This document shows, one piece after another, positions 39,575 to 55,844 of a stretch of 64,000 nucleotides of DNA; position 1 is the stretch's first letter, and each line of letters starts with the position of its first letter. The position numbers were made by a program, and so were the translations under genes. The notes beneath the pieces were generated by a model that was not told where the DNA came from, searched no databases, and worked only from the letters and a program-made list of their open reading frames with translations. The DNA is from a virus: UHGV virus genome UHGV-0038492; one strand, written 5' to 3'.

Positions 39575-39581
39575 GAAAACC

Positions 39582-40109
39582 ATGGCATATCGCGTCGACT
39601 TAACGAAAACTCCGAAACAAATTCTGGTAGATCGTATTAACTACGTTTTCGGGGTATCCTATACCACTGATAACATCGATTTTAACGATAAAGGTGTGCA
39701 ACCACTGACGAAAGACGAAGCCCGTCGTTACGGACTGGAATCGAAAGTGGCCGCTGACTTTAAAAACGGTGTTACAGGGAACCAGGAATTCATCTTAACC
39801 CGTGTTGACCTGGCAACGTTCTTAGCTGACGAACCGGTTACGGTACCGAAAGGCGAAGTAACCAGCAGCCAAGAACTGGCAGACTATATCGTTGCCCAGA
39901 CCGGTATTGATTTGACCCAAGACGACATTATGATCGAGCCTATCAGTGAGGAACTCGATTCTTATGATGTTCGCTTAGTCCCGAATCACTTATCTTTTAA
40001 AGGAACGATTCCGGTCGTATTTACTGACCCCACACCACGCACGTTGGCGTCTCTCGTGACGAAACTTGCGCTGGACGGGTTCCGCCCTGGAGAATTAATC
40101 AATGTCTAA
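39582..40109 (+). CDS. hypothetical protein (175 aa)
   Basis: ATG 39582 after stop of upstream gene (track start 39555 is TTG and overlaps). Confidence 0.55.
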   Translation: MAYRVDLTKTPKQILVDRINYVFGVSYTTDNIDFNDKGVQPLTKDEARRYGLESKVAADFKNGVTGNQEFILTRVDLATFLADEPVTVPKGEVTSSQELADYIVAQTGIDLTQDDIMIEPISEELDSYDVRLVPNHLSFKGTIPVVFTDPTPRTLASLVTKLALDGFRPGELINV

Positions 40110-40989
40110 TGTCAAAGTTTACGACGGTAAACTCTCGACGGTAACACTTAATGCGATGCGTCTGGCTACCGCATTAATTACCGGTGCCGATGTGCAATAC
40201 CCACAGAAGTCCACACTGAATGAGTTTTATAAACTCATGCAAACCCCAGTGCCGGACGGTAAAGCACGTCCCCATTTGCAGTACATGGCGATTGGTAACC
40301 GTGGCCATATGGTCGACACATCAGACGTTGTTGCTGATGTTGTTCCTGTAGCTAAAGAACCTATCGCGTCCGGGATGTTTTCACGCGTTCCGTTTGTCCT
40401 GCGTACTAAAGACAACGATTTGTCTGATGAACAGCGTAAGAACTACGCTTTCCGTACTCTGGAAACCATCAACAAACGTGAGTATTGGGCGTACTACTTA
40501 AAACGCATTGACATGCGTGCAGTAAAAACTACCGACTACGACATTAAGCGTGAGAACGGTGTTGAAACTGTAGAAGACTTTGTCTATACGGATACTGAAC
40601 TGAACCCGGTACCGAAAGTGTTGCCGGACTACGATTACGATGATGACGGTACCGTTGCAATTCCTGACGGCCGTTATGTGGAATCAGGTGCAGACCTGGT
40701 TATTCCGTGGACGGACTTTGACGTTCAGGAGTACATGAACGTGACCAGCATTATGCGCGGTAGCCCTCGTAGTTCGATTATCTCTGAACTGGCACTGTGC
40801 TCTGGCTTAGACCAGGTAACGTCCGGTGACTCTGCTACAGGTTCGAAGTTCAGCTACACTGAAGCTATCGGTGTACAAGCCCTGTATTACATTTCGATGT
40901 TTACTAACCTGGCGCAGACGAACGATAAACTGTCACTGACAATCCGTATCGGTCAACCTGCACCGTTCTTCTTAGGGACAGCGAATTAA
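40102..40989 (+). CDS. hypothetical protein (295 aa)
   Basis: ORF overlapping the upstream gene by 8 nt. Confidence 0.6.
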   Translation: MSNVKVYDGKLSTVTLNAMRLATALITGADVQYPQKSTLNEFYKLMQTPVPDGKARPHLQYMAIGNRGHMVDTSDVVADVVPVAKEPIASGMFSRVPFVLRTKDNDLSDEQRKNYAFRTLETINKREYWAYYLKRIDMRAVKTTDYDIKRENGVETVEDFVYTDTELNPVPKVLPDYDYDDDGTVAIPDGRYVESGADLVIPWTDFDVQEYMNVTSIMRGSPRSSIISELALCSGLDQVTSGDSATGSKFSYTEAIGVQALYYISMFTNLAQTNDKLSLTIRIGQPAPFFLGTAN

Positions 40990-41633
40990 TGTTGATTCCT
41001 GAGCCGAGACTTCCCGATAAAATGGTCAGGATCGCGGCGATAGACCCCGGTACGAGCCATCTCGGGATGGCGGTGCTGGATTGGGAATATGGCAGCGACC
41101 AAGCCGAAGTGGTGTGGGCTGATACCATGCACGTATTAGACCCAACACATCCAAGTGCGTTTGCAGAGTGTGTCGGTAAACGCGACGATCGCTTAGTAAA
41201 ACTCGAAGCGTGCTACCGTGAGTTTCTTCGGATTGCGCGTCCGACGTTTGTTGCAACAGAAACGCCGTTTATGCGGCGGGCAAAACTCTCCGCGTATGAG
41301 TCTGGTGTAGAGTTACAGCTGATGTTAAGACGGGCGTTATGGGACGTGTTTCCAGAGAAAGTGTTACACGGGTTCAATCCGATTATTGTAAAATCATTCG
41401 TCGGTGTGGAAGCGAAAGGAACGGACAAAACAGATATGTTTCGTGCCGTAACGAAGTTGTATCGCGACCACGCGTTGTTTGACATTACAACGTTGGATGA
41501 GCACAGTATCGATGCCGTGGCGGTGGGGAATATCTTTGTCAGGGTAAACCTGTTAAACTTGAATAGTCTCCTACCGCCAAAACAAAAGTCTGCTAAGACA
41601 GCAAAACGGCGGAGAAGACGTCGGAGGAAATAG
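40989..41633 (+). CDS. RuvC-like Holliday junction resolvase with poly-Arg C-terminal tail
   Basis: IAAIDPGTSHLGMAVLD (first catalytic Asp), VATETPF (Glu), HSIDAVAVGN (Asp cluster) in RuvC order; C-terminus KRRRRRRRK; start may instead be ATG 41022. Confidence 0.65.
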   Translation: MLIPEPRLPDKMVRIAAIDPGTSHLGMAVLDWEYGSDQAEVVWADTMHVLDPTHPSAFAECVGKRDDRLVKLEACYREFLRIARPTFVATETPFMRRAKLSAYESGVELQLMLRRALWDVFPEKVLHGFNPIIVKSFVGVEAKGTDKTDMFRAVTKLYRDHALFDITTLDEHSIDAVAVGNIFVRVNLLNLNSLLPPKQKSAKTAKRRRRRRRK

Positions 41634-41635
41634 CG

Positions 41636-42214
41636 ATGTCGCAACCAACACAAGACGTGTCAGCCGCAATTCTTGACATTCTTATCCAAGCAGGGAACAG
41701 AAAGTTAAGTAAAGAGCAGTCCGAAGAACTGTCTAAGATTCTCAAAGACAACTTCGGTGATGATGTCTCTGTAGACGTAACGCGGTCGGGTACAAAGATT
41801 CTGTCGGAGCTACGCCCAACGCTTCTTGAGAACATTGGAAAGATGGCGGAAAACTTTCAGCAGCAAGCCACAAATGCTGTAGAGAGTTTAGGTGACGAAG
41901 TAAGCAAAGAAACGATGTTGACACTGTGGCCGAAACTTGCCGGTGCACAGAAGTTCATTATTGTTCTGCTTGCACTCGCCACTGTGGTCGTGACAGGCTT
42001 CTTAGCGTACGACACGCATCAGAACTATCCAACAGACAGTATGGAAGTGTTGTTTGTATCCTTACTTCCGCTGTTCGGACTGGTAGTATTTGCAACGTGG
42101 CCGATTAAAACGTTGGCTTACAAGTCGTTGGAGATTGCTACCAAAGTTGTCGAGAAGAAACTTGAGAAATCAGGTCAGGTCGTCGCGAAGACGGAAACAA
42201 AGACAACGAAATAA
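41636..42214 (+). CDS. membrane protein (192 aa), two predicted transmembrane helices
   Basis: RBS ggagg; hydrophobic segments FIIVLLALATVVVTGFLAY and VLFVSLLPLFGLVVFATW. Confidence 0.55.
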   Translation: MSQPTQDVSAAILDILIQAGNRKLSKEQSEELSKILKDNFGDDVSVDVTRSGTKILSELRPTLLENIGKMAENFQQQATNAVESLGDEVSKETMLTLWPKLAGAQKFIIVLLALATVVVTGFLAYDTHQNYPTDSMEVLFVSLLPLFGLVVFATWPIKTLAYKSLEIATKVVEKKLEKSGQVVAKTETKTTK

Positions 42215-42216
42215 AA

Positions 42217-42258
42217 CCAACCTCTACCTTCGGGTAGAGGTTTTCTTCTTTTTATTTT
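42217..42258 (+). terminator. Rho-independent terminator
   Basis: Stem cctctacc / ggtagagg with loop ttcg, then ttttcttctttttatttt. Confidence 0.8.
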
Positions 42259-42302
42259 ACAATTTTTGATCATACTGTGAGACTTGAACAAGGAGACTTA
42301 TC

Positions 42303-42956
42303 ATGGAACCACTACGTTTAATGACCAGAACGCTACTGATTCCTATCTGGGAATTGAAGCTTGCCCCATTGTCTGCCTCTAATGGGGAGGTCATTGATTT
42401 TATTAAAGACGAAGAATTTGTGTTGACGGCTTTCCAGGAGACGCTGCATCGTTATTATAATGCAGTGCCTTTATCTGGCGGATTAGATTGCCCTGGTGTA
42501 GAAGGGAGTACGTCTGCGTTAATCGCAGAGTATTTAGAACAGAAAGGAATCGGGGTTGGGAAAGGCCGGGTTTATGTGGACGCCGATAAACTGAGGAGTT
42601 ACCAGATTGAGCTGACGTTTCAGATAAGAAAATTACTTACCCGCTACGGTCTTTTCTCGATTAACTGTAAGGTTGATGACGTACGGATGTTAGACCACGG
42701 TTTTACCACTGTCCTCAAAACCTGTCGCGGTAAAAGATTCGTACAGTTTGCGTGGTGGGTACCAGTATTGCGTGGTGAGAGAAAAACGGTGGAGGGGTTG
42801 TACGGCTGGGCGCTATGGAGCGAAGTTCCAGTAAATAAACTCGATGCAGTTATTCCAAAGCACCGAAACGTTCCGCTTAGCAGTTTATTTACTTCCGGCG
42901 AGAACACTACGTGGGCTGAATTCGTTAATAACGTTATGTCAATTGGGGAACAATAA
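42303..42956 (+). CDS. hypothetical protein (217 aa)
   Basis: RBS aaggagac before ATG 42303. Confidence 0.6.
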   Translation: MEPLRLMTRTLLIPIWELKLAPLSASNGEVIDFIKDEEFVLTAFQETLHRYYNAVPLSGGLDCPGVEGSTSALIAEYLEQKGIGVGKGRVYVDADKLRSYQIELTFQIRKLLTRYGLFSINCKVDDVRMLDHGFTTVLKTCRGKRFVQFAWWVPVLRGERKTVEGLYGWALWSEVPVNKLDAVIPKHRNVPLSSLFTSGENTTWAEFVNNVMSIGEQ

Positions 42957-43432
42957 TGCAGCAATTAGATATTACCGAAGACAAAATCTCCGCTAAATTT
43001 CCACAATTACGTGAATACATCAAAGACTTAAATTCGATACGCGAAACACCGGTCCGCATTACCTTAGCGGTAGAAGATGACATTACACACGGTATTGCGA
43101 TTTGGGAACCGGGCAATCTTATCTATTTGGTGGTGGCGGAAGGTTCTCGACGTTTCGGTGTGGGTTCGTTCTTATTGCAGTACGTTCAGTTGAATTCCGA
43201 TCGTCAAATGGTGACGTGTCGTGTCCACCCTTCGAACATTGACGGCCTGTGTTTCTTTTCGAAAAAAGGCTACCAGATTGACCGTTGGTATATCGCCAGC
43301 GACTCTCGTCGGTATTTTCGTATGACGAACGGTAACGTTGTTTCGTCATACGCCCCGCCGGAAGAAGGATATTTGGTGGATTTTATCGAAAACACGCCCA
43401 TCTTTCTCTCTGTTGCGGATAAAATTTATTAA
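42956..43432 (+). CDS. GNAT-family N-acetyltransferase (158 aa)
   Basis: Acetyl-CoA-binding-like motif VVAEGSRRFGVGSFLLQYV, then a GNAT-like C-terminal region; coupled start (TAATG). Confidence 0.6.
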   Translation: MQQLDITEDKISAKFPQLREYIKDLNSIRETPVRITLAVEDDITHGIAIWEPGNLIYLVVAEGSRRFGVGSFLLQYVQLNSDRQMVTCRVHPSNIDGLCFFSKKGYQIDRWYIASDSRRYFRMTNGNVVSSYAPPEEGYLVDFIENTPIFLSVADKIY

Positions 43433-43448
43433 CCGTTGAGAGTCTAAA

Positions 43449-43925
43449 ATGATACGTGTCGAATATGAGACGCGGTGCTTAGAAGACAATCGAGCAAAAG
43501 CATTACGTTGTGTTGAAATCGTCCCCGAGCACGAACTGGATATCCAAGCTGGTAAGGTTCGGGGCGTTCCGGTTAAGATCGTACAACATAGCCATTGTTC
43601 GCAATATAAAGAGAAAGCTGTCCCAGTAGTACGTTCCAGTAAACGAGAAGACTTTTCAGAACTCCGTAAGTGTTTTCAACGACACTACCGTCGGAGTAAA
43701 TGGAAAGTGTTGGTATTAATGTTAGTCGACGATTTCATTAAAGACCTGGTTTGGGAAGAAGTGCTTAAAGAGCGTGGTTTTCAACCCAAACCGTTCTCGT
43801 ATCACTGGGAACGTTTCAAAAAGAAATACCACGAGTCATTGCGTTGGTCTCCGAACACCCGGAATATGATGCCACGTTTGGAATCAATGCCTTGGCTTCG
43901 TGTTTATCTCGATGAGGTAAACTGA
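43449..43925 (+). CDS. hypothetical protein (158 aa), basic
   Basis: RBS gagag before ATG; stop overlaps next start. Confidence 0.55.
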   Translation: MIRVEYETRCLEDNRAKALRCVEIVPEHELDIQAGKVRGVPVKIVQHSHCSQYKEKAVPVVRSSKREDFSELRKCFQRHYRRSKWKVLVLMLVDDFIKDLVWEEVLKERGFQPKPFSYHWERFKKKYHESLRWSPNTRNMMPRLESMPWLRVYLDEVN

Positions 43926-44314
43926 TGAAACGTTTTATTACTCCATTTCTAATGTTACTTTCGTTTTCTGTATTAGCTGATTTTAAACCTTACGATATCA
44001 GTCGTTACGAACCCGCTGTCCCTGGCGATAAACCGGTTGTGTTTAAAGCAGACGACCAACCCGTCACTGCGGTTCAAAACGATGAGTTTGCAGTGGTGAA
44101 TTACGGCAAAACGGACTTATGTCCTGCGGGTGGATTTTATCTGGTGAACATCAAACGTCGGACTTACCAGTTTGTTGATCCGGGTAGCTGCTCTGCAATG
44201 GTTAAGGTGACGTTAGAAACCGTACCTTACACGAATAAAAACATTAATATACAACGTTTAACCTTTTATGCGGGTGATGAAATCACAGCACGTTATCCGT
44301 TATACGGGTATTAG
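43925..44314 (+). CDS. secreted or periplasmic protein with N-terminal signal peptide (129 aa)
   Basis: N-terminus MKRFITPFLMLLSFSVLADF resembles a Sec signal peptide; RBS gaggtaa. Confidence 0.55.
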   Translation: MKRFITPFLMLLSFSVLADFKPYDISRYEPAVPGDKPVVFKADDQPVTAVQNDEFAVVNYGKTDLCPAGGFYLVNIKRRTYQFVDPGSCSAMVKVTLETVPYTNKNINIQRLTFYAGDEITARYPLYGY

Positions 44315-44337
44315 TGATTAGCCCCCACGGAGTTCGT

Positions 44338-44976
44338 ATGTCTTTTGTAATTGATTTCGACGTTGGCCACAGACAGAACTTACTTAATCTCGTTAGTTAT
44401 TGTAACAGTGACAGTGTACGGAAAAAGCTTTCGGCTGAAAAGGTAGACGTTACGCTCGTCGGTGCCCCAACACCGGAAGGACGCTATAAGGTAAAGTTAA
44501 CGAACCGTAACGACATAAACGATGCGGTACTGATTACCTACACAAAGCTTCAACTGAACGACTTCCTTGAGATTCCTGCCAAGTATCTGGATTGGTTTGA
44601 TTTCGAAAACGGTCAACCTAAGAACTACGATACGTGGGCAGCTTCCGCTAAAGTCGCTGTAGAGAAAATGTGCCAAGACCGAGGTATGGTGATATCTCGC
44701 GCTTGGGACACCGGTTCACAGTGTCACATTGAGTTTGACGAGTCTATCGAACGGTATGTGGTTGTCTACGAGTGCGACTCTTTTATTTATAGTGCGAGAA
44801 ACCGATTCATCTTACCTCTACACTTAGGGCAGGTGATCAACGACACGACATTAGACGGTCTTGATTACAATAACGAACTGAACAAGAAACCATTGGCGGA
44901 TTTGGACGGTGAGTTAGAAGTGTGGATGGGTCAGGCGTTGGTTGAGACAGTCGTCTTAAGCGGCCTGGAAGTATAA
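44338..44976 (+). CDS. hypothetical protein (212 aa)
   Basis: ATG 44338 with RBS ggag 6 nt upstream (track start 44314 is GTG). Confidence 0.55.
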   Translation: MSFVIDFDVGHRQNLLNLVSYCNSDSVRKKLSAEKVDVTLVGAPTPEGRYKVKLTNRNDINDAVLITYTKLQLNDFLEIPAKYLDWFDFENGQPKNYDTWAASAKVAVEKMCQDRGMVISRAWDTGSQCHIEFDESIERYVVVYECDSFIYSARNRFILPLHLGQVINDTTLDGLDYNNELNKKPLADLDGELEVWMGQALVETVVLSGLEV

Positions 44977-44985
44977 TAGTAACGG

Positions 44986-45030
44986 CGGGTAGAGAGAGCT
45001 TTCGGGCTCTCTCTACTTTTCTTTTTTTTC
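44986..45030 (+). terminator. Rho-independent terminator
   Basis: Stem gtagagagagc / gctctctctac with loop tttcg, then ttttcttttttttc. Confidence 0.8.
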
Positions 45031-45059
45031 CATTATCGACGGTCTTTATGGAGGTGACC

Positions 45060-45614
45060 ATGAAAGACTATAGAATTGCAATCATCGGGTCTCGAGAAAC
45101 ACCGGAAGACGTTATGCAGGAAATGTTAGACACGTTACGGGAAGGGTTTCGAATCTTACGAAAGAAAGGCTACACGATTACCACCCGTTCTGGCGGGTGT
45201 TATAAAGGCCCAGACCAGCTTCAGTTTATGATAGCACGTACCGAGGACGTTAAGAGCGTTTGTTATCTGCCGGATGAAAAGAAAATGTGGTTAGGGAAAA
45301 TACACCCTAAGGTAGAGTTTCGTTATATCCCACAAGACGTTCAGTACCGAGCGATAGTTGCTTCACTTCACCCAAATCCAGATAAGCTCTCACCGATTGC
45401 CTGGGCGCTACACGGCCGTAATCTGAATATCATCGCAGGTGACTGCTTAGACGAACCGGTAGACGCAGTCTATTACTTTAGCGACCACGACAAACACGGA
45501 AACGCAAAAGGTGGTACTGCGATGGGTGTAAAATACGCGAAGTCAATCGACGTTCCTTGTTACTACCATACCGTCGATCGGGATAAGTGGTTGGAAAGTC
45601 TTCGTTTATTATGA
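45060..45614 (+). CDS. SLOG/DprA-like Rossmann-fold protein, putative (184 aa)
   Basis: N-terminal strand motif RIAIIGSRE and C-terminal glycine motif KGGTAMGV resemble the SMF/DprA-LOG superfamily pattern; RBS ggagg 5 nt before ATG 45060. Confidence 0.35.
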   Translation: MKDYRIAIIGSRETPEDVMQEMLDTLREGFRILRKKGYTITTRSGGCYKGPDQLQFMIARTEDVKSVCYLPDEKKMWLGKIHPKVEFRYIPQDVQYRAIVASLHPNPDKLSPIAWALHGRNLNIIAGDCLDEPVDAVYYFSDHDKHGNAKGGTAMGVKYAKSIDVPCYYHTVDRDKWLESLRLL

Positions 45615-45737
45615 ACTTGACTTTAACCGCGTAGTTGAGTTCAGCGATTCACCGTGCGATGGGAACAGAAGTTACTGTGTATCCGTTAGCAGGGTGAACT
45701 GGGTAAAAGTAAGATCAAAGCAAACGAGTAAATTATC

Positions 45738-46871
45738 ATGTCAACGTTAGATAGCGACTTAGAAGTGCTTTGTGACGATTACGACCGACTCGTAGCGTTA
45801 GAATCCATTGGAGTAAAAGACAATTATCCGGCTATCGTTGCTATCCGTAAACGTTGGCTTTTGGATGATGTGGTTGTTGCGTCAGAGTCTGCGGCCATGA
45901 TGCACCGTGCACAGTTTTTGTCAGACACGGAACCTGATAAAGGGATAGGCAAAGCGGCGGCACGACTCACCGGACGTGCGGTTCGTGGCGTAAGTCGGGT
46001 AGCAGGACGTGCTGCCAGTGCAGGTGCAAAAGCATCGGCGAACTTCGCAGGTAAACATTCCAAACAACTTGCTTTACGTTTTGTGGATTTTGCTGAGGCT
46101 GCGGGTAAAGAAGTCATTAAGGAATTAAAAGAAGCGACGTCTAAAGCGACGACCTTAGAGCGCAAACTGCAAAAGTTAAATGCACGTCTAAATTTAATCG
46201 GTGACAAAGACACCTTAAAACCGGTTGACTGCGACACGGGAAGCTGGACGACCAAAGTTTGTTTAGAAGACAAACCTAACGTAAAAGCGTGTATTGAGTT
46301 CAGTAAGAACCTGAACGCAATGGATGCGATGGTCAACGAGTATACCGTTAAAACGCGCACCATTATCGGTAAGAGCAAGAAAGTTACTGAGAGTGGCTTG
46401 GAGAAAGTAGGTCGCTCAACGAACTGGGCGATTAAACGTAGTGCAGGGCTGTTCGGTATTATCGATCCGTTTAAAACGGTGAAAGCGTATCCGTGGCCAG
46501 GTAACGTGGTGGTCGTTGAACACGACAACGGTAAGATTGAGTGGGCGATTGCCCGTGATGGTGATTTTGGCCACTCAATCAAATCTCTGAACTTACACGA
46601 AATCGGTTCGGCTCTCGAAGCCGTTGAAAAAATTATCCGAGCTTTACGTCAGCGTGGTACGAAGCGACGTAGCGTTGGTTATACCGGTATTTACGATGAA
46701 GTTCAGCGAATGAAAAAAGAGCTGAAGTCGTTAGACGGTCGTGAGTTACGCGATGCTACCGTTCGGTATAAGAACGCACTGCGTTTAGAAGATGCGTTTA
46801 CTACCTCGTTAGTGCGTGTTGCGGAAGGCTTACTGGAATGGTGCAGGTTGTCGCTGATTGAGGTTAAATAA
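45738..46871 (+). CDS. hypothetical protein (377 aa)
   Basis: Long ORF; Ala/Arg-rich low-complexity stretch near residue 80. Confidence 0.6.
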   Translation: MSTLDSDLEVLCDDYDRLVALESIGVKDNYPAIVAIRKRWLLDDVVVASESAAMMHRAQFLSDTEPDKGIGKAAARLTGRAVRGVSRVAGRAASAGAKASANFAGKHSKQLALRFVDFAEAAGKEVIKELKEATSKATTLERKLQKLNARLNLIGDKDTLKPVDCDTGSWTTKVCLEDKPNVKACIEFSKNLNAMDAMVNEYTVKTRTIIGKSKKVTESGLEKVGRSTNWAIKRSAGLFGIIDPFKTVKAYPWPGNVVVVEHDNGKIEWAIARDGDFGHSIKSLNLHEIGSALEAVEKIIRALRQRGTKRRSVGYTGIYDEVQRMKKELKSLDGRELRDATVRYKNALRLEDAFTTSLVRVAEGLLEWCRLSLIEVK

Positions 46872-47338
46872 TGCGTATTACTATTATTCTCAAACCCGAC
46901 AGTAAATACGGAAAGTTATACGGCGACCAGGTACTCAAACTGCACAACATGTTGTTCGCAGAAGAGAAAGTGCGTATTAGTCAGTTAACTGGACGTGACA
47001 CGTTCAACCCCATCGAACGTTTAGAAGAGATTTGGCCTCAAGACTATCTCTGTGCGTGTGCGGTGGGTGACAACGAACAGCTTCTGGGATTTATGACGTT
47101 CTCATTGGGTTCTTGCTCAAAAGACACGTTTGTTTACATCGGGAATTACTATGTGATTCCTGAAGCACGTTCTCAAGGGGTAGGGCGTGCGCTTATGGAC
47201 AAAGTCCGTGAATACGGAAAGTCCAAAGGTTGTGGTTGGATGAGTCTGGATGTGTTAGACAACAACGTTAAAGCTATCTCCTTGTATGAGAAAATGGGAT
47301 TCCGTACCGAATGCAGGGAAATGATAAAGGAAATCTAA
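46871..47338 (+). CDS. GNAT-family N-acetyltransferase (155 aa)
   Basis: Classic motif A IPEARSQGVGRALMDKV and C-terminal LYEKMGF; coupled start (TAATG). Confidence 0.75.
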   Translation: MRITIILKPDSKYGKLYGDQVLKLHNMLFAEEKVRISQLTGRDTFNPIERLEEIWPQDYLCACAVGDNEQLLGFMTFSLGSCSKDTFVYIGNYYVIPEARSQGVGRALMDKVREYGKSKGCGWMSLDVLDNNVKAISLYEKMGFRTECREMIKEI

Positions 47339-47339
47339 A

Positions 47340-47972
47340 ATGGCTGCAAGATTCGTACCGTTTCATGACGGGTCTAGATATACTTTTGGTGTAGAGCGTT
47401 ACGCTGTGGGTTTTCGTCCTGGTTGGAGAGTGGTACGAATCGATAAAGCGTGTTGGTGTTTACCGACCGGCATTTTTGATTACTTTACGCCTGAAGCTTT
47501 AACGCGGTTTGTTTCTCTGGGTTCTCCCACGCAACGTGCTGCGTGGGAAAAGAATATTCGTTGCCGTTATTTGGGTAAAACACGAAACGCGACGGTACGT
47601 GGTGTTTATCACGTAGGGAGTCGTTGGTTACACGTTGAGCCAACACATCCCCGTTGTGCCGTCACACCCTTTAACGGTGAATATCGCGGTCAGGTGTACA
47701 CGGGGTTACATTTTGCGTTCCCGGATAACCCTGACCTTAATTATTTTCTGGCTACCCCGAAAGACGTTACATTAGCCACGTTCTATAAATACCTTTTGTT
47801 CTATCCTGCCTACGTCGTTGCAGAATACGAACACAAAGCATTTCCTCTGCCTTACGGTAGAGACAGGAGATTAGCAGGATGTTCTATCGAGAACTTCAGC
47901 AATACACCGACGCTCTCCGAAAAGCGACCATTGATGCTCACAACAACCTCAGAGATGTCGTTAGCGTTATAG
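47340..47972 (+). CDS. hypothetical protein (210 aa)
   Basis: ORF starting 2 nt after previous stop; 3' end overlaps the next ORF by 94 nt. Confidence 0.5.
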   Translation: MAARFVPFHDGSRYTFGVERYAVGFRPGWRVVRIDKACWCLPTGIFDYFTPEALTRFVSLGSPTQRAAWEKNIRCRYLGKTRNATVRGVYHVGSRWLHVEPTHPRCAVTPFNGEYRGQVYTGLHFAFPDNPDLNYFLATPKDVTLATFYKYLLFYPAYVVAEYEHKAFPLPYGRDRRLAGCSIENFSNTPTLSEKRPLMLTTTSEMSLAL

Positions 47973-48250
47973 AACAGTGTTCGGATGTATTGTATGCGGA
48001 AACGATTGAAACGCCAACCCACGACGGTGTGAAATCGCTCCAGCTACACGTTTGTAGTAAACACGGCAGTCTGTCGTTAAACTTCCGTGTAGGTTTAGAT
48101 TATTACATGGTTCGTAAGAGCTATTTAAGTTGTGACGGTGACCTTTATCCGGTTGTCTGGAACAACGATTATTCTAAGTTTGTTTATCCACTTGAAGAAC
48201 ACCGACGCACGGTTTATGAATTTGTGAAAGCTGTTCTCGAGGGGTTCTAA
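47879..48250 (+). CDS. hypothetical protein (123 aa)
   Basis: ATG with RBS aggag ~10 nt upstream; unusual 94 nt overlap with upstream ORF. Confidence 0.4.
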   Translation: MFYRELQQYTDALRKATIDAHNNLRDVVSVIEQCSDVLYAETIETPTHDGVKSLQLHVCSKHGSLSLNFRVGLDYYMVRKSYLSCDGDLYPVVWNNDYSKFVYPLEEHRRTVYEFVKAVLEGF

Positions 48251-48263
48251 AGAGGGTATTGTG

Positions 48264-48869
48264 ATGTCAGAGATGATTCTCGACTCATTACTGCTGATTA
48301 CGGTGGCGTATATCAACAAAACCGGTAAGCTACCAAAGCGTGGGGTGACGATTGAACGGGAGGGGTTTAAGCACCGCTACCCGTTAACGAAAGTTCTCGA
48401 TTTGGCAGCGCGGTTAGCGAAGATGCGTAGACCGACGTCAGACGCAGCACCGAAGTACGTCTTAGTGGTACTCCAACGTGCGATTTCTGAAGTCCGTCGT
48501 GCGCGTCGTCGTGCCTCGTTTCGCTTTTATCCAAACTCTACGCAGCAGGTTGTGGGGGTCTATAACGAAATGGTTGTTGATTTACGTACCGAACACTGTA
48601 ACGTTACAGGACTTGCGTATAACCGCCTCAAACGCATTCTGGACGACTCAGACGCGTTTACCACACCGCAAGAAGGTCAAGCGGCTTTAGCGCTTCTACG
48701 AGGCGCTGAGCTCGTTATTGTGGACACCGCAGTACAGGCCGCAAGAATGCAGCACTATCTTGCTAAGCAAGGATTAGTTTTACTGTGTGTTCCGTCTGCA
48801 CAGGCTGCTAATCTTACCGCACCGGAAACGTCAGAAGTGTGGAGTGGTCCGATTGTTGACCATCAATAA
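48264..48869 (+). CDS. hypothetical protein (201 aa)
   Basis: ATG 48264 with RBS agaggg 7 nt upstream; terminator follows. Confidence 0.55.
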   Translation: MSEMILDSLLLITVAYINKTGKLPKRGVTIEREGFKHRYPLTKVLDLAARLAKMRRPTSDAAPKYVLVVLQRAISEVRRARRRASFRFYPNSTQQVVGVYNEMVVDLRTEHCNVTGLAYNRLKRILDDSDAFTTPQEGQAALALLRGAELVIVDTAVQAARMQHYLAKQGLVLLCVPSAQAANLTAPETSEVWSGPIVDHQ

Positions 48870-48872
48870 AAC

Positions 48873-48912
48873 CTTACCCCTACCTATCGGTAGGGGCGGG
48901 TTTCTTTTTTTA
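48873..48912 (+). terminator. Rho-independent terminator
   Basis: Stem cccctacc / ggtagggg with loop tatc, then cgggtttcttttttt. Confidence 0.8.
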
Positions 48913-49008
48913 TCCTAAAATTTATTACAACCAATAGCTATTATGTGAACGCCGGTATGGAATAAAGAAGTATCGGTTTAAATTTTTGTGCGTAAAGGTA
49001 AAACGATA

Positions 49009-49632
49009 ATGCTTAAGACAGTGTCTATTGATGGCCCTGACTTTTCTGGGAAATCGACGTTGTGCAAAATAGTAAAAGGTATGCTGGAATCTGCGGGGTT
49101 AAAGGTCTGCATCCGTAATCACCCTACGACGGAGACCGAAGCGGGTATCCGCGCACGCAGTTTAGTCGTTCAGTCCGCAGCAAAAGCAAAAATTGCCGAA
49201 GCGATGTGCGACGATTTCCTTCACACGTTAGACCATGTTGTTGACGATTACGATGTTGTTATTTTCGACAGGTTCTGTCCCTCTACAATCGTTTACCAGG
49301 GTGTCGACGGTAAAGACGAAGTTTTCCGACGTAAGCTAACGCGTCATTTCCACGCACCAGATTTGTACGTTTGGACGGACGTGGATTACGACGGCGCAGT
49401 AGCACGCTTTAAGAAACGGGTAGAAGAACAAGGTAAGAATTGGGACGACGAGGTTCTTACCGTTAAGTATTTAAAAGACAACCAAAGTTGGGAAGCGTTA
49501 CGTGACCACTACCGCTTTGCCCACCACATCCTCACTGAAGGCGGTTGTCTGCACCATTTATTACCCGTGAAGCAAGACGACGATTACCGTTTGAAAGCGG
49601 CTGAAATCGTTGCTTGTATTTTAGAGAATTAA
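49009..49632 (+). CDS. tmk: thymidylate kinase-like nucleoside monophosphate kinase
   Basis: P-loop IDGPDFSGKST and DR...YQG motif (VIFDRFCPSTIVYQG) in Tmk order; start set at ATG 49009 with RBS aaagg. Confidence 0.75.
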   Translation: MLKTVSIDGPDFSGKSTLCKIVKGMLESAGLKVCIRNHPTTETEAGIRARSLVVQSAAKAKIAEAMCDDFLHTLDHVVDDYDVVIFDRFCPSTIVYQGVDGKDEVFRRKLTRHFHAPDLYVWTDVDYDGAVARFKKRVEEQGKNWDDEVLTVKYLKDNQSWEALRDHYRFAHHILTEGGCLHHLLPVKQDDDYRLKAAEIVACILEN

Positions 49633-49637
49633 TCACA

Positions 49638-49676
49638 TACCCCTACCTTCGGGTAGGGGATTATTTAATTTTTTCT
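49638..49676 (+). terminator. Rho-independent terminator
   Basis: Stem acccctacc / ggtagggg with loop ttcg, then attatttaatttttt. Confidence 0.8.
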
Positions 49677-49717
49677 CAGATATATATTACCTTAGTGAGA
49701 TTACACAGTAATCTCTT
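49677..49717 (+). promoter_or_regulatory. conserved promoter-like element copy 4
   Basis: tcAGATATATATTACCTTAGTGAGATTACacaGTAATCTC with perfect 8 bp inverted repeat GAGATTAC/GTAATCTC. Confidence 0.5.
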
Positions 49718-49750
49718 TACGACTTGTTCTACAGATTAGGATTAAATATC

Positions 49751-50110
49751 ATGGCTTACAATCACAACTCTATTGTTTTAGCAAAACGTAAATTCGGTCT
49801 TCATCTTTCTTACGTGATTCGTCATTTGACAGCGAAAGACATTACACAGCGTGAACTTGCCCAGCTTGCGAAAGTTTCACAGCCGGTTATTTCATCTATT
49901 AAGAACGATCATAGCGAACGCCTGAGTCTACCAATAATGATGAAGGTTGCTGATGCAATTCGTCTGAAATATCAGATTACGTTTAATTCTGTTAAAGGGC
50001 GTTGCTCAGTAACGGTTCACGTAGAGTCTGCGTTGGACTACGTTGCAAATACGTCCCTTAAACGTACAGCGAAAAATATTCGTTTTGTTACTAACAGCGC
50101 AACACACTAA
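49751..50110 (+). CDS. XRE-family helix-turn-helix DNA-binding protein, putative regulator (119 aa)
   Basis: HTH-like segment ITQRELAQLAKVSQPVISSIKN; RBS agga before ATG 49751; directly downstream of promoter-like element copy 4. Confidence 0.55.
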   Translation: MAYNHNSIVLAKRKFGLHLSYVIRHLTAKDITQRELAQLAKVSQPVISSIKNDHSERLSLPIMMKVADAIRLKYQITFNSVKGRCSVTVHVESALDYVANTSLKRTAKNIRFVTNSATH

Positions 50111-50131
50111 TCAACCTAAAGGAGTATTATC

Positions 50132-50815
50132 ATGGCACCGAAAACTAAGAAAACTGAAGTTAAAGAAACTGTAGAAAAGCCGACTGATACTAAGGAAGCG
50201 GAAGTTAAGCAGACTGGGCCTAGCAAGAAGCTTGCGCTTATGCCACCCACCACAGAAATACACGGGGATAAAATCTTAAGTTACACTCCGCGCGCGAGTT
50301 TAACGATGGATATTTACCATTACCCGGTATTCGACCTGTACACGCTTGTCTGTCGACTCGACGATGAGATACTGGCAGTCGTTCCAGGTATCCACAAAGA
50401 AAAACTGCTTACGGGTTCAGTCATTAGCGAGATTTTCCTGCGCTTGATGTTTAAATCAGACGATAAGATGATCAGCCAGATTGCTAGTAAATTGACTGAC
50501 TTCTTTGTTGAGGCTTCAACGTGGTTAGGCTTTCACCCAACGGCTTATTTCATTTTCGACACCAAAATGTTGTATGCTGAAATGGGCGATAGCGTTAAGT
50601 ATCCTATCTTGCTTAATGAAGAAGTCGTTCCGTTTTCCCTTACCAGTCCTAACAAACATCTTCGCTTTCATCCTGCGTTAGAAAACCTGATTGAATACAA
50701 TCGGTTGGAAAAATATTACGCTTATCATCGCATGTTCTTTGAACTTCTGCGTGATAAATTAAGAGGCAAAGTTCCAGATTCTAGTGCAGCATTCACTAGT
50801 TCTAAGCTTTGGTAG
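50132..50815 (+). CDS. hypothetical protein (227 aa) with Lys/Thr/Glu-rich N-terminus
   Basis: RBS aaaggag before ATG; terminator follows. Confidence 0.6.
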   Translation: MAPKTKKTEVKETVEKPTDTKEAEVKQTGPSKKLALMPPTTEIHGDKILSYTPRASLTMDIYHYPVFDLYTLVCRLDDEILAVVPGIHKEKLLTGSVISEIFLRLMFKSDDKMISQIASKLTDFFVEASTWLGFHPTAYFIFDTKMLYAEMGDSVKYPILLNEEVVPFSLTSPNKHLRFHPALENLIEYNRLEKYYAYHRMFFELLRDKLRGKVPDSSAAFTSSKLW

Positions 50816-50825
50816 TTTGTAACAA

Positions 50826-50857
50826 ACAGGGAGCTTCGGCTCCCTTTTTCTTTTTAC
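50826..50857 (+). terminator. Rho-independent terminator
   Basis: Stem agggagc / gctccct with loop ttcg, then ttttctttttt. Confidence 0.75.
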
Positions 50858-50901
50858 AACTTTTTCTTTTGTTGTGAGGAAAGCCGATAAGGAGTATTAA
50901 A

Positions 50902-51888
50902 ATGGTATATCGTAAAACGATAGAAAGAACCTCTTCTGATTTAACCGTAGGACGCTTAACCCGTAGAGATATTCGCAATCCTCAGCTTCAGGCATGTTTA
51001 ACGGGGCCTAACGGTGCGGTGATTCGAGAAGCACTGTGTAATACCGAGCTGAATACGTTCTCTTTACAAAAAGGAAAAACAATCCAAGGGTTTATCATCA
51101 CAAAACACATTTACGGCGACCCAACGTTACACTGCTTGTATATGCACGAAATTGTACCTGGGTGTTTGAACAAACTGAGCCTTCTATTGGTACTTGACTA
51201 TACGGGTTTTACGTACCTTAACCGAATTGCCAGAGGTGTGGAAGAAATCGCCGAGCTTAACGATTTAGGGTTTAGACATACCCACACAGCATATCGTTTA
51301 GGTACACGTAAGTTACTGGATGTCACTTTACCGACGAACGTGAAGAACGTCTCCGACGACTTCTATAAAGACTTAACCGGAGCACAACGTGAACAGCTTA
51401 TGATGTTGCTTGGCACTAGCGTCGTTGAAAACATCAATGCTGACCCTGTAACGCGTTCTCGACAAATAATGCCACAAGTTGAAACATTGGTGGAATTAGT
51501 GCGGCACGTCAATCACTACACTTACGTTTGGATGGACGGTAATGACGTTGTGGGTGTGGTGCAAGTTAAATCACGCAATCTTAGCGAGTGCGAACTAAAA
51601 GCCATTGCGGTAAGTGAAACACACCGGGGCCGTGGGATTGGGCGTGCGTTGTTGTACCGTGCTTTACAGATTGCATCGACAACAGCGGCACCATTAGAAA
51701 TAGGGTGTTACAATAACAACCCAGCATTTAGACACCTGGCCGTAGATTTGTTTAAATTCCGTCCCTACGAGTACGAATTTGTTTTAGTGCGCGACGACGA
51801 TGTCGTCAGTTGGGAGCGTCGGAAAAACCGCGTCGAGTTAGTGTTAGGCGACGAAATGTCATCGTTACAAGGCGGAATTAATGCATAA
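50902..51888 (+). CDS. GNAT-domain protein (328 aa; acetyltransferase fold in C-terminal half)
   Basis: RBS aaggag before ATG; C-terminal half carries VGVVQV...IAVSETHRGRGIGRALLYRA motif; N-terminal half unassigned. Confidence 0.55.
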   Translation: MVYRKTIERTSSDLTVGRLTRRDIRNPQLQACLTGPNGAVIREALCNTELNTFSLQKGKTIQGFIITKHIYGDPTLHCLYMHEIVPGCLNKLSLLLVLDYTGFTYLNRIARGVEEIAELNDLGFRHTHTAYRLGTRKLLDVTLPTNVKNVSDDFYKDLTGAQREQLMMLLGTSVVENINADPVTRSRQIMPQVETLVELVRHVNHYTYVWMDGNDVVGVVQVKSRNLSECELKAIAVSETHRGRGIGRALLYRALQIASTTAAPLEIGCYNNNPAFRHLAVDLFKFRPYEYEFVLVRDDDVVSWERRKNRVELVLGDEMSSLQGGINA

Positions 51889-52696
51889 ACCAATTATAAA
51901 GTGGATGGGTGGCAAATCGCGGATTATCGACACCTTACTACAAGTCTTACCTGAACGTACCACTTTCGTTGAACCGTTTGTTGGCGCAGGGTCAGTGTTT
52001 TTGAACACACGTTATAAACGTTACATTCTTGCTGACTCTAACCCTGACTTAATCCAGTTGCTGAATGTAGCGAAAGACCAACCTGAAGAACTTATCTTGA
52101 AGTCGAAACCGCTATTCGAAGACGGTAACGATTGTATTAAGTATATGGAGAGACGAGAACTGTTTAATCGCGAAACGGATATGGCTCCGTTAGACCGGGC
52201 AGCAATGTTTCTGTACTTAATGCGTCACGGTTTTAACGGGATGTGTCGTTACAACGGCAGCGGGGGTTTTAACGTTCCGTTTGGTCGCTATCCTAACGGT
52301 GTGTATTACCCGTTAGAAGAGATTCGTGGTTGGGCTAAACGTTGTCAAGAACCGGAATACTTAGAAATTGTTTGTGAAGATTTCCGAACAGTTTTAGAGC
52401 GTACGCCGGAAGACAGTGTGATTTACGCAGACCCACCGTATATACCGCTCTCAGAGACCGCTAAACACGCGCAATACCATCGGAAGGAGTTTTCCCAGGC
52501 CGACCATCGGGAACTCGCCAGAGCGCTGTTTAAGCAGGTTGAGAAGGGGAATAGCGTTGTGTTGTCCAATGCGGATACGTTACTAACGCGTGAGATTTAT
52601 TACGGGTTCGAATGGCGTTCTGTGGAAGTTGGCCGATACATGGGTGCGTCAGGTGCTGCTCGTAAAACGGTAACGGAATTGTTAGGAGTGCTCTAA
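51881..52696 (+). CDS. dam: DNA adenine methyltransferase (Dam-like, N6-adenine)
   Basis: WMGGKSR, VEPFVGAGSVFLNT, YILADSNPDLI and catalytic DPPY motifs in Dam order; closely parallels E. coli Dam. Confidence 0.93.
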   Translation: MHKPIIKWMGGKSRIIDTLLQVLPERTTFVEPFVGAGSVFLNTRYKRYILADSNPDLIQLLNVAKDQPEELILKSKPLFEDGNDCIKYMERRELFNRETDMAPLDRAAMFLYLMRHGFNGMCRYNGSGGFNVPFGRYPNGVYYPLEEIRGWAKRCQEPEYLEIVCEDFRTVLERTPEDSVIYADPPYIPLSETAKHAQYHRKEFSQADHRELARALFKQVEKGNSVVLSNADTLLTREIYYGFEWRSVEVGRYMGASGAARKTVTELLGVL

Positions 52697-53469
52697 TGCG
52701 TATAGTGGATATCCACGATTATCGTAATGACCATTTAGCGATTGGTGTAGAAGGTAAGATGGTTTCGTTAACCCGTGTACGCAAAGGGTTAATGGAAAAG
52801 GAGATCATTCGGGAGTCCGAAGACCCTACCTTTATCATCCTTTCGAACACTAATCAGTTACAGGGCATCTTTTCAGGGCGTGCTGACGGTAAGATTTTCT
52901 ATATGTCCGCAATCGTTGTGTTTGCGAAGAAGAACATCAACTTTGCCCAACTCAAACGTTTGTTAAACGTGAAGATGTTTGATGTCACCTACCCTGCTAA
53001 TGACCTAAAACGTCGTGATCAGTTAATGGCGTTTTTGGGTATGCAGCCAACGTCAATCGATTATGACCTTACGATTACTGAAAAGCCGGAAGTACGTACT
53101 GACTTACCTGACGTGGTCGACGTTGAATCCCTAACGTTAGAAGAGACGTTTACGATTCCTAAGGTTGTTAATGTCAACCTGGACACGCACTGTTTAGGGT
53201 TGTTAGCCGTAGGTGCAGCAGAAGGGTTGTGTTGTCGTAAAGACGGTAAGGTTGAAGGAATCTTAGTCTATTCGAAAATCAACGAAAAGACGTTTGCCAC
53301 CGAAGGCTTTTTCTATAACGACTGTACTTACGGAAACGCACTACTAACCACGTATTTCCGTATTGCTTATCTGAAAGGCGCAACTGTACGCCTCACGTTT
53401 CCATACACAGCTCCACCGTCTATGGGTGGAGTTGAGGTAGAACCATTAACCGGCCACTTTATCTTTTAA
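52696..53469 (+). CDS. hypothetical protein (257 aa)
   Basis: Coupled start (TAATG) directly after dam. Confidence 0.6.
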   Translation: MRIVDIHDYRNDHLAIGVEGKMVSLTRVRKGLMEKEIIRESEDPTFIILSNTNQLQGIFSGRADGKIFYMSAIVVFAKKNINFAQLKRLLNVKMFDVTYPANDLKRRDQLMAFLGMQPTSIDYDLTITEKPEVRTDLPDVVDVESLTLEETFTIPKVVNVNLDTHCLGLLAVGAAEGLCCRKDGKVEGILVYSKINEKTFATEGFFYNDCTYGNALLTTYFRIAYLKGATVRLTFPYTAPPSMGGVEVEPLTGHFIF

Positions 53470-53478
53470 GGATGATGA

Positions 53479-53706
53479 ATGGAAATCAAACGTATTGTAA
53501 CCAAAAACAAACAGATTGTTTACGTCGCAGGTGATAACGAATTCTCGGCGGTAATCAACAGCGAAAATGTGCTCGTTATCGGTTATCCGGGTAAAGTTAT
53601 TACGCGCAGTCACCAACGTGTGATTGACAAACTTATCGCAAAAGCGAAAGCGCGTGACGGTGTTGGTTCAGTACAAACCCACACGGGGTTAACGCTGGCC
53701 CTCTAG
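53479..53706 (+). CDS. hypothetical protein (75 aa)
   Basis: RBS aaggatg before ATG 53479. Confidence 0.5.
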   Translation: MEIKRIVTKNKQIVYVAGDNEFSAVINSENVLVIGYPGKVITRSHQRVIDKLIAKAKARDGVGSVQTHTGLTLAL

Positions 53707-53745
53707 TCAGCAGGTAATATGACCTCTTAACTGGAGACTTTAATA

Positions 53746-54252
53746 ATGAGTGAGACTCTGGATTTTAATCAGCTCGAACAACACGATTTCGACCTCGGTG
53801 TTCGTGATATCGATGCTGATCATGAAACACGTTGTAAAGAGCTGTTTAACCGTTACGGTCAGCTCATCACCGGTGCCTCTGATGACACCGAATTCAGTTT
53901 AGATGAGTTTGAAAAAGTTCTGTCGTGTTTTATCACTGACTGTCTGGCGAAGAAAGCGTTGCTGGTCGAACTGAACTTAGACTCCGTCGAACCTACTGAT
54001 GCCCATGCGGTGTTGAAAGAATCCATTATCCCAACTGATGAGATTATGGACACTGTCGCAGGTATTCGCGGTACGTTTGAAACTGCCGTAGAAGAATACA
54101 CGGAACAGCTTCGTGAATCAGGACTGACGTTGTGTGCGCCAGCAGGTGAGCCTTTACCGTCCGACGAAGAAACTGAAGAAGCGCGTAGTCGCTTAGCGCG
54201 TTATGTTATTACGTCTATCTTGGTAGATGATCGCGAAGAGAATCTGCTATAA
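53746..54252 (+). CDS. highly acidic hypothetical protein (168 aa)
   Basis: RBS tggagac; composition rich in Asp/Glu (net charge roughly -20 by eye); terminator follows. Confidence 0.6.
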   Translation: MSETLDFNQLEQHDFDLGVRDIDADHETRCKELFNRYGQLITGASDDTEFSLDEFEKVLSCFITDCLAKKALLVELNLDSVEPTDAHAVLKESIIPTDEIMDTVAGIRGTFETAVEEYTEQLRESGLTLCAPAGEPLPSDEETEEARSRLARYVITSILVDDREENLL

Positions 54253-54254
54253 GC

Positions 54255-54295
54255 TGCCCCTCTCTCCGTTTGGAGAGAGGGTGTATTTATTTTTA
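54255..54295 (+). terminator. Rho-independent terminator
   Basis: Stem cccctctctcc / ggagagaggg with loop gttt, then gtatttattttt. Confidence 0.8.
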
Positions 54296-55297: not shown

Positions 55298-55301
55298 GCA
55301 G

Positions 55302-55342
55302 TGCCCCTCTCTCCGCTAGGAGAGAGGGTACTTTTATTTTTC
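55302..55342 (+). terminator. Rho-independent terminator (near-duplicate of 54255-54295)
   Basis: Stem cccctctctcc / ggagagaggg with loop gcta, then tacttttattttt. Confidence 0.8.
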
Positions 55343-55355
55343 TTCGAGGTGTGTG

Positions 55356-55844
55356 ATGACAACGGTATTAGTAACAAAGGATTACATTTTAGCCGATCGG
55401 TTGGTTGATTACGGCGGTACAGTTAAAGAGCTTCCTAAATTACACAAATACAAAAACAAATTCGTTGTTTACACTGGGGAACGTGTATTGGACTCTGATC
55501 TCTGGAAAACGATGATAATGTCCGCAGCAGAAAAATATTTAATTGAAGAAAAGCGAACTAAGGTTGAAGGGATATTTAAAGATCTTATCGAAAAAGAACG
55601 ACTTTTCGATCAGGTTATTATTTTTACAGCTAAGGAAACGTTTTGGCTAGGGTTGGTAGCAGATAAATTTGAAGCCCACACATTGAATAAAAACACGGTT
55701 TGGACAACGGGTTCAGGTCAAGGTTTTGCTCGAGCAGCATGGGCATCAGGCATAGCCGAAAAGAATATCGTCCCCTTAGTAGGTTCGATCGATACAGCGA
55801 CATCACAGTCTTACGACTTGTTTTACAGGAAGCATTTACGATGA
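55356..55844 (+). CDS. hypothetical protein (162 aa)
   Basis: ATG 55356 with RBS gaggt 5 nt upstream. Confidence 0.55.
   Translation: MTTVLVTKDYILADRLVDYGGTVKELPKLHKYKNKFVVYTGERVLDSDLWKTMIMSAAEKYLIEEKRTKVEGIFKDLIEKERLFDQVIIFTAKETFWLGLVADKFEAHTLNKNTVWTTGSGQGFARAAWASGIAEKNIVPLVGSIDTATSQSYDLFYRKHLR

Follow-up and report, generated by a model that had tools for sequence, protein, structure and literature searches.

Why should a single phage carry three genes for GNAT family acetyltransferases within 9 kb? The genes in question, GNAT1 (positions 42956 to 43432), GNAT2 (46871 to 47338), and GNAT3 (50902 to 51888), lie on the + strand of UHGV virus genome UHGV-0038492, of which a 64,000-nucleotide stretch (the window) was analyzed. 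The original prediction, made from the nucleotide sequence, saw in them an accessory block whose products modify different targets. All three genes are indeed present, and profiles, the solved structure of a GNAT1 ortholog (PDB ID 7dqg), and folds assign their products to the GNAT superfamily. The reading favored here, with moderate confidence, is that they are three anciently diverged GNATs, each in its own terminator-bounded unit of a conserved region, with GNAT2 a likely capsid-delivered polyamine acetyltransferase, GNAT1 a minimal GNAT, and GNAT3 a tandem GNAT. The genes as such are already known: they have been annotated since 2011, the crystal structure of one ortholog has been deposited, and one ortholog group has been assayed.

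Each product contains a single R-x-x-G-x-G site, as predicted: RRFGVG at residues 65 to 70 of GNAT1 (158 amino acids [aa]), RSQGVG at residues 100 to 105 of GNAT2 (155 aa), and RGRGIG at residues 242 to 247 of GNAT3 (328 aa). As evidence for the GNAT fold, this motif A was rejected as non-specific: 11 of the 75 called window genes together hold 15 occurrences of the pattern [RQ]xxGx[GA], versus 13.2 +/- 3.8 in shuffled proteins. The superfamily assignment is carried by profile, solved-structure, and fold evidence. GNAT Pfam models are matched by exactly 3 of the 66 window genes scanned. The anticipated Pfam placement held for GNAT2 (PF00583; E = 8.8e-19, 68.3 bits versus a cutoff of 20.7) and for residues 198 to 279 of GNAT3 (PF00583; E = 1.2e-11, above the gathering score), and not for GNAT1, whose match to PF13508 (20 bits) is under the cutoff of 27. 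GNAT1 is placed by PHROG, PDB, and hhalign comparisons: it has matches of 2.4e-69 to phrog_7861 ("acetyltransferase") and of 5e-61 to PDB 7dqg ("putative acetyltransferase"), its family profile retrieves beyond 7dqg only GNAT structures from PDB (3ld2 at 6.3e-5), and its orthologs have precomputed hits to PF13508 and PF00583. On balance, these lines of sequence evidence point to GNAT1 as a member of the GNAT superfamily.

All-against-all BLASTP among the three proteins gives no alignment better than E = 0.25, which speaks against close paralogy and recent duplication, in agreement with the original prediction. Profile-profile comparisons detect a deeper relation, with an hhalign probability of 93.5% between the GNAT1 and GNAT2 families, spanning motif A, and of 89% when the GNAT2 family is compared with the C-terminal GNAT3 domain. 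Hairpin-plus-T-run terminators between the genes put GNAT1, GNAT2, and GNAT3 each in a different transcription unit. On the + strand, intrinsic terminators flank the GNAT1 unit at 42219 to 42242 (a hairpin on its 5' side) and 44987 to 45018 (its end), close the GNAT2 unit at 48877 to 48896, and flank the GNAT3 unit at 50828 to 50845 (its 5' side) and 54258 to 54281 (its end). The three anciently diverged genes probably encode separate enzymes, and not one system. Since their architectures, transcription units, and virion status differ, the predicted modification of different targets is plausible as well.

The intergenic terminators belong to two families whose sequences are repeated with hardly a change. 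The first (42219 to 42242, 48877 to 48896, and a strong hairpin-plus-T-run terminator at 49640 to 49659) has the stem CCCCTACC...GGTAGGGG or CTCTACC...GGTAGAG, and the second (44987 to 45018, 54258 to 54281, and another intergenic terminator at 55305 to 55328) has the stem CCCTCTCTCC...GGAGAGAGGG; the loop of most of them consists of four bases, often TTCG. Sigma-70 promoters are not enriched (20 found, 20.2 expected), which is unsurprising because the phage carries its own RNA polymerases. The motif TTTTACAA, which the GNAT1 and GNAT3 units share on their 5' sides, was rejected, its frequency being no higher than expected by chance.

The window derives from a Seoul-like (SPN3US-related) jumbo phage of the phiKZ type. 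Pfam searches identify the phiKZ major capsid protein, three phiKZ internal head proteins, a tail tube protein, and a divergent DnaB-like ATPase. In a megablast search of deposited phages, a 12-kb region yielded only a 66-bp match and no nucleotide-level relative, and relatives were traced at the protein level. At that level, the window is collinear with Salmonella phage SPN3US (Seoulvirus) and with the Erwinia phages Asesino and phiEaH2 (Erskinevirus) and Caitlin and Huxley (Machinavirus). In gene-by-gene BLASTP comparisons, positions 39555 to 54252 correspond to SPN3US gp83 to gp109 with the order kept and identities from 24% to 84%; counterparts of gp93, gp99, gp102, and gp107 are absent from the window. 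GNAT1, GNAT2, and GNAT3 are the orthologs of gp88 (59% identity), gp95 (47%), and gp104 (29%), which already had acetyltransferase labels in the original SPN3US record of 2011, and they have the same neighbors: GNAT1 follows gp87, GNAT2 overlaps gp94, and GNAT3 precedes the Dam gene gp105. The stretch mixes virion and head proteins, a DprA-like protein, a thymidylate kinase, a helix-turn-helix protein, Dam, and nucleotide-metabolism genes. Collinear with the relatives and interleaved with virion and metabolism genes, the GNAT region thus belongs to the conserved backbone of the clade, and the idea of an accessory block must be abandoned. The number of related phage records that contain the gene is 62 for GNAT1, about 53 for GNAT2, and 48 for GNAT3.

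GNAT2 is an SSAT-like GNAT with affinities to enzymes acting on small molecules. In addition to motif A, it has the motif B tyrosine in an A-x-x-L-Y-E-K-x-G-F segment; this residue, Tyr139, is invariant among the orthologs. Its nearest characterized relatives with solved structures are the SSAT2/thialysine acetyltransferase (PDB ID 2bei; 1.4e-11) and nourseothricin acetyltransferase (5.8e-10); AAC(3)-I, AAC(6')-Iy, and the polyamine acetyltransferase Dpa are also among them. The substrates of these best solved relatives (polyamines, thialysine, and streptothricin or aminoglycosides) are all polycationic small molecules. Human SSAT2 shares with GNAT2 a VLD-x-N...Y...G segment over motifs A and B; it differs in that the alignment is limited to the C-terminal 70 to 90 residues, and GNAT2 reaches no curated family cutoff in NCBIfam. 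By analogy with these relatives, GNAT2 would catalyze the acetyl-CoA-dependent acetylation of polycationic amines, most likely spermidine.

Part of the question of polyamine activity has already been addressed in print for the GNAT2 orthologs, with mixed results. In the work of Li et al. (2023; PMC9992855), Escherichia coli BL21 lacking speG made N-acetylspermidine when it expressed phiEaH2 YP_007237670 or Caitlin YP_009292176, which are 49% and 44.5% identical to GNAT2. The third protein of the group that they expressed, SPN3US YP_009153389 (gp95), gave none. All three correspond to GNAT2 in gene position, each being encoded directly 3' of an internal head protein gene, and the phiEaH2 and Caitlin proteins also equal it in length. 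The substrate proposed for GNAT2 is extrapolated from theirs. Seven GNAT2 orthologs share 46 invariant positions. At Asp130 (codon at 47258 to 47260), the sequence is VLDNN in the window protein, the two active enzymes, and the proteins of Asesino and Huxley, versus VLGNN in both Seoulvirus proteins, namely the inactive one of SPN3US and that of pEa_SNUABM_29. Asp is likewise the aligned residue in SSAT2 and BH1408. The association of Asp or Gly with spermidine activity among these sequences is a correlation only.

The second line of evidence concerns the location of the protein. GNAT2 is preceded by a gene for a phiKZ-type internal head protein of 377 aa (45738 to 46871, + strand; PF12699, 31.2 bits versus a cutoff of 27), which is 59% identical to SPN3US gp94 and whose stop codon overlaps the GNAT2 start; both belong to the unit that ends at 48877 to 48896. 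A 123-aa open reading frame (ORF) downstream (47879 to 48250, + strand) is 44% identical to gp97, another head protein of SPN3US. In the proteomic data of Scheuch et al. (2023; PMC10052503, Tables S2, S3, and S6), the 17.6-kDa gp95 is classed as a head protein, one of roughly 50 in SPN3US, a location of the GNAT2 ortholog that the original prediction missed. It is represented by 39, 38, and 46 spectral matches in wild-type virions and by 29, 29, and 39 in tailless heads, with a normalized head-to-virion ratio of 1.1, and its N terminus is intact, with no cleavage by the prohead protease (PMC10052503). The products of genes 94 and 97 are likewise head proteins (PMC10052503). Phage phiKZ injects inner-body proteins of the PF12699 family along with its DNA (bioRxiv 10.1101/2024.03.24.586471).

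In the internal head protein at 45738 to 46871, an A-L-E site that ends at residue 22 and an A-S-E site found at residue 50 are retained; they correspond to the candidate prohead-protease sites proposed for SPN3US gp94 (ALE-22 and ARE-51). Its weak BLASTP match to SPN3US gp104 (E = 6.7e-4 over 113 aa) is probably spurious.

The main text of PMC10052503 gives no function for gp95, and the word "acetyl" is absent from it; Li et al. (PMC9992855) proposed early expression and did not mention virions in connection with the spermidine acetyltransferases. The two studies thus leave spermidine activity and head location unconnected. Joining them makes GNAT2 a probable capsid-delivered polyamine acetyltransferase. 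Made alongside the upstream internal head protein, it would be packaged in the capsid and delivered with the DNA, and it could then reduce the free polyamine of the host from the very onset of infection, ahead of phage gene expression. In Pseudomonas aeruginosa, intracellular polyamine accumulation inhibits phage replication (bioRxiv 10.1101/2022.04.01.486733). A more detailed version of this proposal can be offered only tentatively: GNAT2 might be loaded by way of the internal head protein to which it is translationally coupled and be co-injected, and it would neutralize spermidine or putrescine before phage expression and so blunt polyamine-dependent host responses or nuclease fidelity, or else it might tune the polyamine charge within the capsid.

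Several observations weigh against this assignment. The capsid location has been established for SPN3US only, and both packaging in the lineage of the window and ejection of the enzyme are putative. The closest tested relative by genus, gp95 of SPN3US (47% identity), is the one that gave no N-acetylspermidine in the speG assay (PMC9992855). GNAT2 scores 25.4 bits against the PaiA model SpmdActasePaiA, whose cutoff is 250, and its best NCBIfam match is the protein acetyltransferase model RimI (TIGR01575; 49 bits, 6.6e-13). As for the other two genes, the position of the usual tyrosine of GNAT2 is occupied by Phe in GNAT1 and Leu in GNAT3, so that either protein could be slow or non-catalytic.

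Some of these observations are what would be expected if GNAT2 were instead a protein acetyltransferase, acting on capsid or ejection proteins or on host proteins at entry, with the spermidine activity of its orthologs a side activity. Besides the inactivity of gp95 toward spermidine and the RimI match, this alternative draws on the position of gp95 among roughly 50 head proteins and on surveys that catalogue multiple GNATs of jumbo phages and predict host RNA polymerase or ribosomal proteins as their targets (PMC7824862, PMC13282480). The cited model for such enzymes is Rac of the phiKMV-like phages (PMC7824862, PMC13282480), a GNAT of LUZ19/phiKMV that serves host takeover by acetylating the alpha subunit of host RNA polymerase and is set beside the window GNATs here by its description. 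The analogy is weakened because phiKZ-type phages bring their own RNA polymerases. The RimI cutoff of 86.4 is well above the score of GNAT2 and is likewise not reached by GNAT3 (26.8 bits) or GNAT1 (16.1 bits), the best solved relatives of GNAT2 are small-molecule amine acetyltransferases, and two of the three assayed orthologs acetylate spermidine in vivo. A protein substrate for GNAT2 is accordingly doubtful, if far from negligible, and polyamine acetylation remains the preferred reading.

GNAT3 is encoded in a unit of a different kind. Its start-to-stop neighbors are a Dam-type N6-adenine DNA methyltransferase gene (51881 to 52696, + strand; PF02086, E = 1.3e-57; 68% identical to gp105), which overlaps the GNAT3 stop by 8 nucleotides, and the 257-aa orf52696 (52696 to 53469, + strand), whose start overlaps the Dam stop. 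GNAT3 has two GNAT domains per chain: an N-terminal GNAT-like domain (about residues 14 to 133) that lacks motif A and a C-terminal domain (about residues 189 to 296) that carries it. A confident AlphaFold2 model built from a 12-sequence alignment (pLDDT 83.5, pTM 0.77) shows two GNAT-type beta-alpha units, so that profile and predicted fold agree, and its structural neighbors are small-molecule and protein acetyltransferases. The architecture is that of MshD. The score against TIGR03448 (22.4 bits versus a cutoff of 163.1) places GNAT3 outside the MshD family, and its sequence identity to tandem-GNAT proteins such as MshD (PDB ID 1ozp), MAB_4324 (7q3a), and VipF (6wqb) is 9% to 13%. The degenerate N-terminal domain probably binds the substrate, with the C-terminal domain being the catalytic one. 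A word-indexed protein search gave four close relatives of GNAT3; the exhaustive HMMER search used in its place gave about eight representatives at 50% identity, all of about 315 to 335 aa.

The product of orf52696, a member of the gp106/gp107 family with no Pfam hit, is predicted to be a remote paralog of GNAT3, with a degenerate tandem GNAT fold and without the acetyl-CoA motif. This would make orf52696 a fourth GNAT-fold gene of the region, which, along with the capsid location of the GNAT2 ortholog, goes beyond the original prediction. The gp106/gp107 family has two tandem copies in SPN3US, Asesino, phiEaH2, and Huxley, and one in the window. The identities to SPN3US are 84% for the gp84-like, 82% for the gp85-like, and 68% for the Dam protein, versus 24% for the gp87-like protein, 29% for GNAT3, and 24% for orf52696; 90%-identity clusters number 562 variant sequences for GNAT3 and 406 for orf52696, versus 112 for GNAT1 and 174 for GNAT2. 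That GNAT3 and orf52696 diverge far faster than the intervening Dam hints at a host-facing role. GNAT3, whose ortholog gp104 is a non-virion protein in SPN3US (PMC10052503), is probably co-transcribed with Dam and a degenerate GNAT-fold paralog, and its target may be a host-facing one.

The overlapping arrangement brings to mind a DNA-modification module in which GNAT3, Dam, and orf52696 would add an acyl group to adenine beside N6-methylation, as does Mom of phage Mu. The adjacency of GNAT3 and Dam is kept in Seoulvirus and Machinavirus, and Mom-family GNATs are found in some jumbo phages (PMC7824862). Against Mu Mom, the GNAT3 and orf52696 families give hhalign probabilities of 0.5% and 0.1%, a weak test made with a single Mom sequence. 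The Erskineviruses Asesino and phiEaH2 retain Dam and the gp106/107 genes and have lost GNAT3, and the structural neighbors of GNAT3 are, as noted, small-molecule and protein acetyltransferases. A Mom-like module appears very improbable.

Little better can be said of the proposal that the GNATs form an accessory counter-defense block against defense-signaling nucleotides, antibiotics such as aminoglycosides, or the translation apparatus, which we consider highly unlikely. The fast divergence of GNAT3 and its neighbors would fit an arms race, and GNAT2 resembles AAC(6'), AAC(3), and streptothricin acetyltransferases at scores below threshold. Every resistance-enzyme model, however, remains far under its cutoff (the best in NCBIfam being AAC(6') group E at 40 bits versus 140 and STAT at 38 bits versus 420), the region is conserved and collinear with the clade core, and the genes lie in separate transcription units. 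Nothing links GNAT1, GNAT2, or GNAT3 to nucleotide signals, and that part of the original prediction finds no support. Toxin GNATs (TacT, AtaT, and KacT) are also absent from the PDB sequence hits of the three proteins, and the genes on their 5' sides code for a 217-aa protein of unknown function, the internal head protein, and a 227-aa protein of unknown function, none of them a small upstream antitoxin.

GNAT1 is a minimal single-domain GNAT. Its ortholog gp88 of SPN3US is the protein of PDB entry 7dqg (160 of 160 residues identical), for which a literature search found no describing paper, and it is missing from the proteins found in virions and heads of SPN3US (PMC10052503 data). Among 14 family members, 46 positions are invariant, including a C-terminal YFRMTN...PIFLS extension, and an invariant Phe-Phe takes the place of the motif B tyrosine. 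GNAT1 has weak affinities to YjaB, RimI, protein acetyltransferases of the Ard1/Naa type, and PaiA; from these similarities, protein N-acetyltransferase activity would be a low-confidence guess. Directly before the gene, with a stop that overlaps its start, lies the 217-aa gp87-like ORF (42303 to 42956, + strand; phrog_8034, unknown function), which shares 24% identity with gp87 and has no Pfam or PDB relative. GNAT1 may be described as a putative minimal cytoplasmic GNAT, without the usual catalytic tyrosine, that is paired with a fast-evolving gp87-like protein.

The lack of this tyrosine raises the possibility that acetyl-CoA binding or scaffolding without catalysis, as in PanZ, is the role of one or more of the GNATs, with GNAT1 and GNAT3 the likeliest cases. 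Many active GNATs lack the motif B tyrosine, however, and motif A is conserved in every GNAT1 and GNAT3 ortholog, which makes such a role unlikely.

The GNAT1 unit also contains a gp90-like ORF of 129 aa (43925 to 44314) with a signal-peptide-like N-terminal segment (MKRFITPFLMLLSFSVLA), which suggests an exported protein. Farther downstream, positions 55298 to 55699 comprise 402 bp of ordinary composition without a called gene of at least 50 aa, 3' of a strong terminator.

Fold and family, orthology, coupling to neighboring genes, and terminators come from the present analysis, whereas spermidine acetylation and capsid location come from published work on orthologs. The same proteins are widespread in deposited sequences. 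Exact copies of the window GNATs are already in NCBI, mostly named "GNAT family N-acetyltransferase," in assemblies of E. coli, Salmonella, and Shigella. On an E. coli "plasmid" of 97.7% identity, PGAP gave GNAT2 and GNAT3 this name and labeled GNAT1 "hypothetical." Such near-copies of the phage have been deposited at 97 to 98% identity as circular "plasmids" of roughly 222 kb (NZ_CP173450.1 and NZ_CP134650.1), carried by an E. coli isolate from human urine and an Enterobacter ludwigii isolate from a gull, and in isolate assemblies of E. coli, Salmonella, and Shigella up to 848 contigs, each of about 225 kb, carry exact window proteins. The plasmid-labeled deposits fit the description of "Seoul-like persistent jumbo phages" (bioRxiv 10.1101/2024.12.31.630880). 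In the literature, the products of the GNAT1 to GNAT3 orthologs are absent from the main texts of the SPN3US papers of 2016, 2017, and 2020, and neither the Goslar virion paper nor the Ralstonia jumbo-phage paper contains anything relevant to the three proteins.

What this analysis adds is the joining of head-protein status to spermidine acetyltransferase activity for the GNAT2 family, along with a predicted degenerate GNAT-fold paralog beside Dam. If GNAT2 is indeed ejected, the host would receive a metabolic effector that is already made. Such ejection, if true, would matter for the question of how phages that form a nucleus get through the first minutes after infection, and for the view of polyamines as a battleground between phage and host. 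Because the lineage is common in assemblies of clinical E. coli, Salmonella, and Shigella isolates, such host-modifying enzymes would be acting in real isolates.

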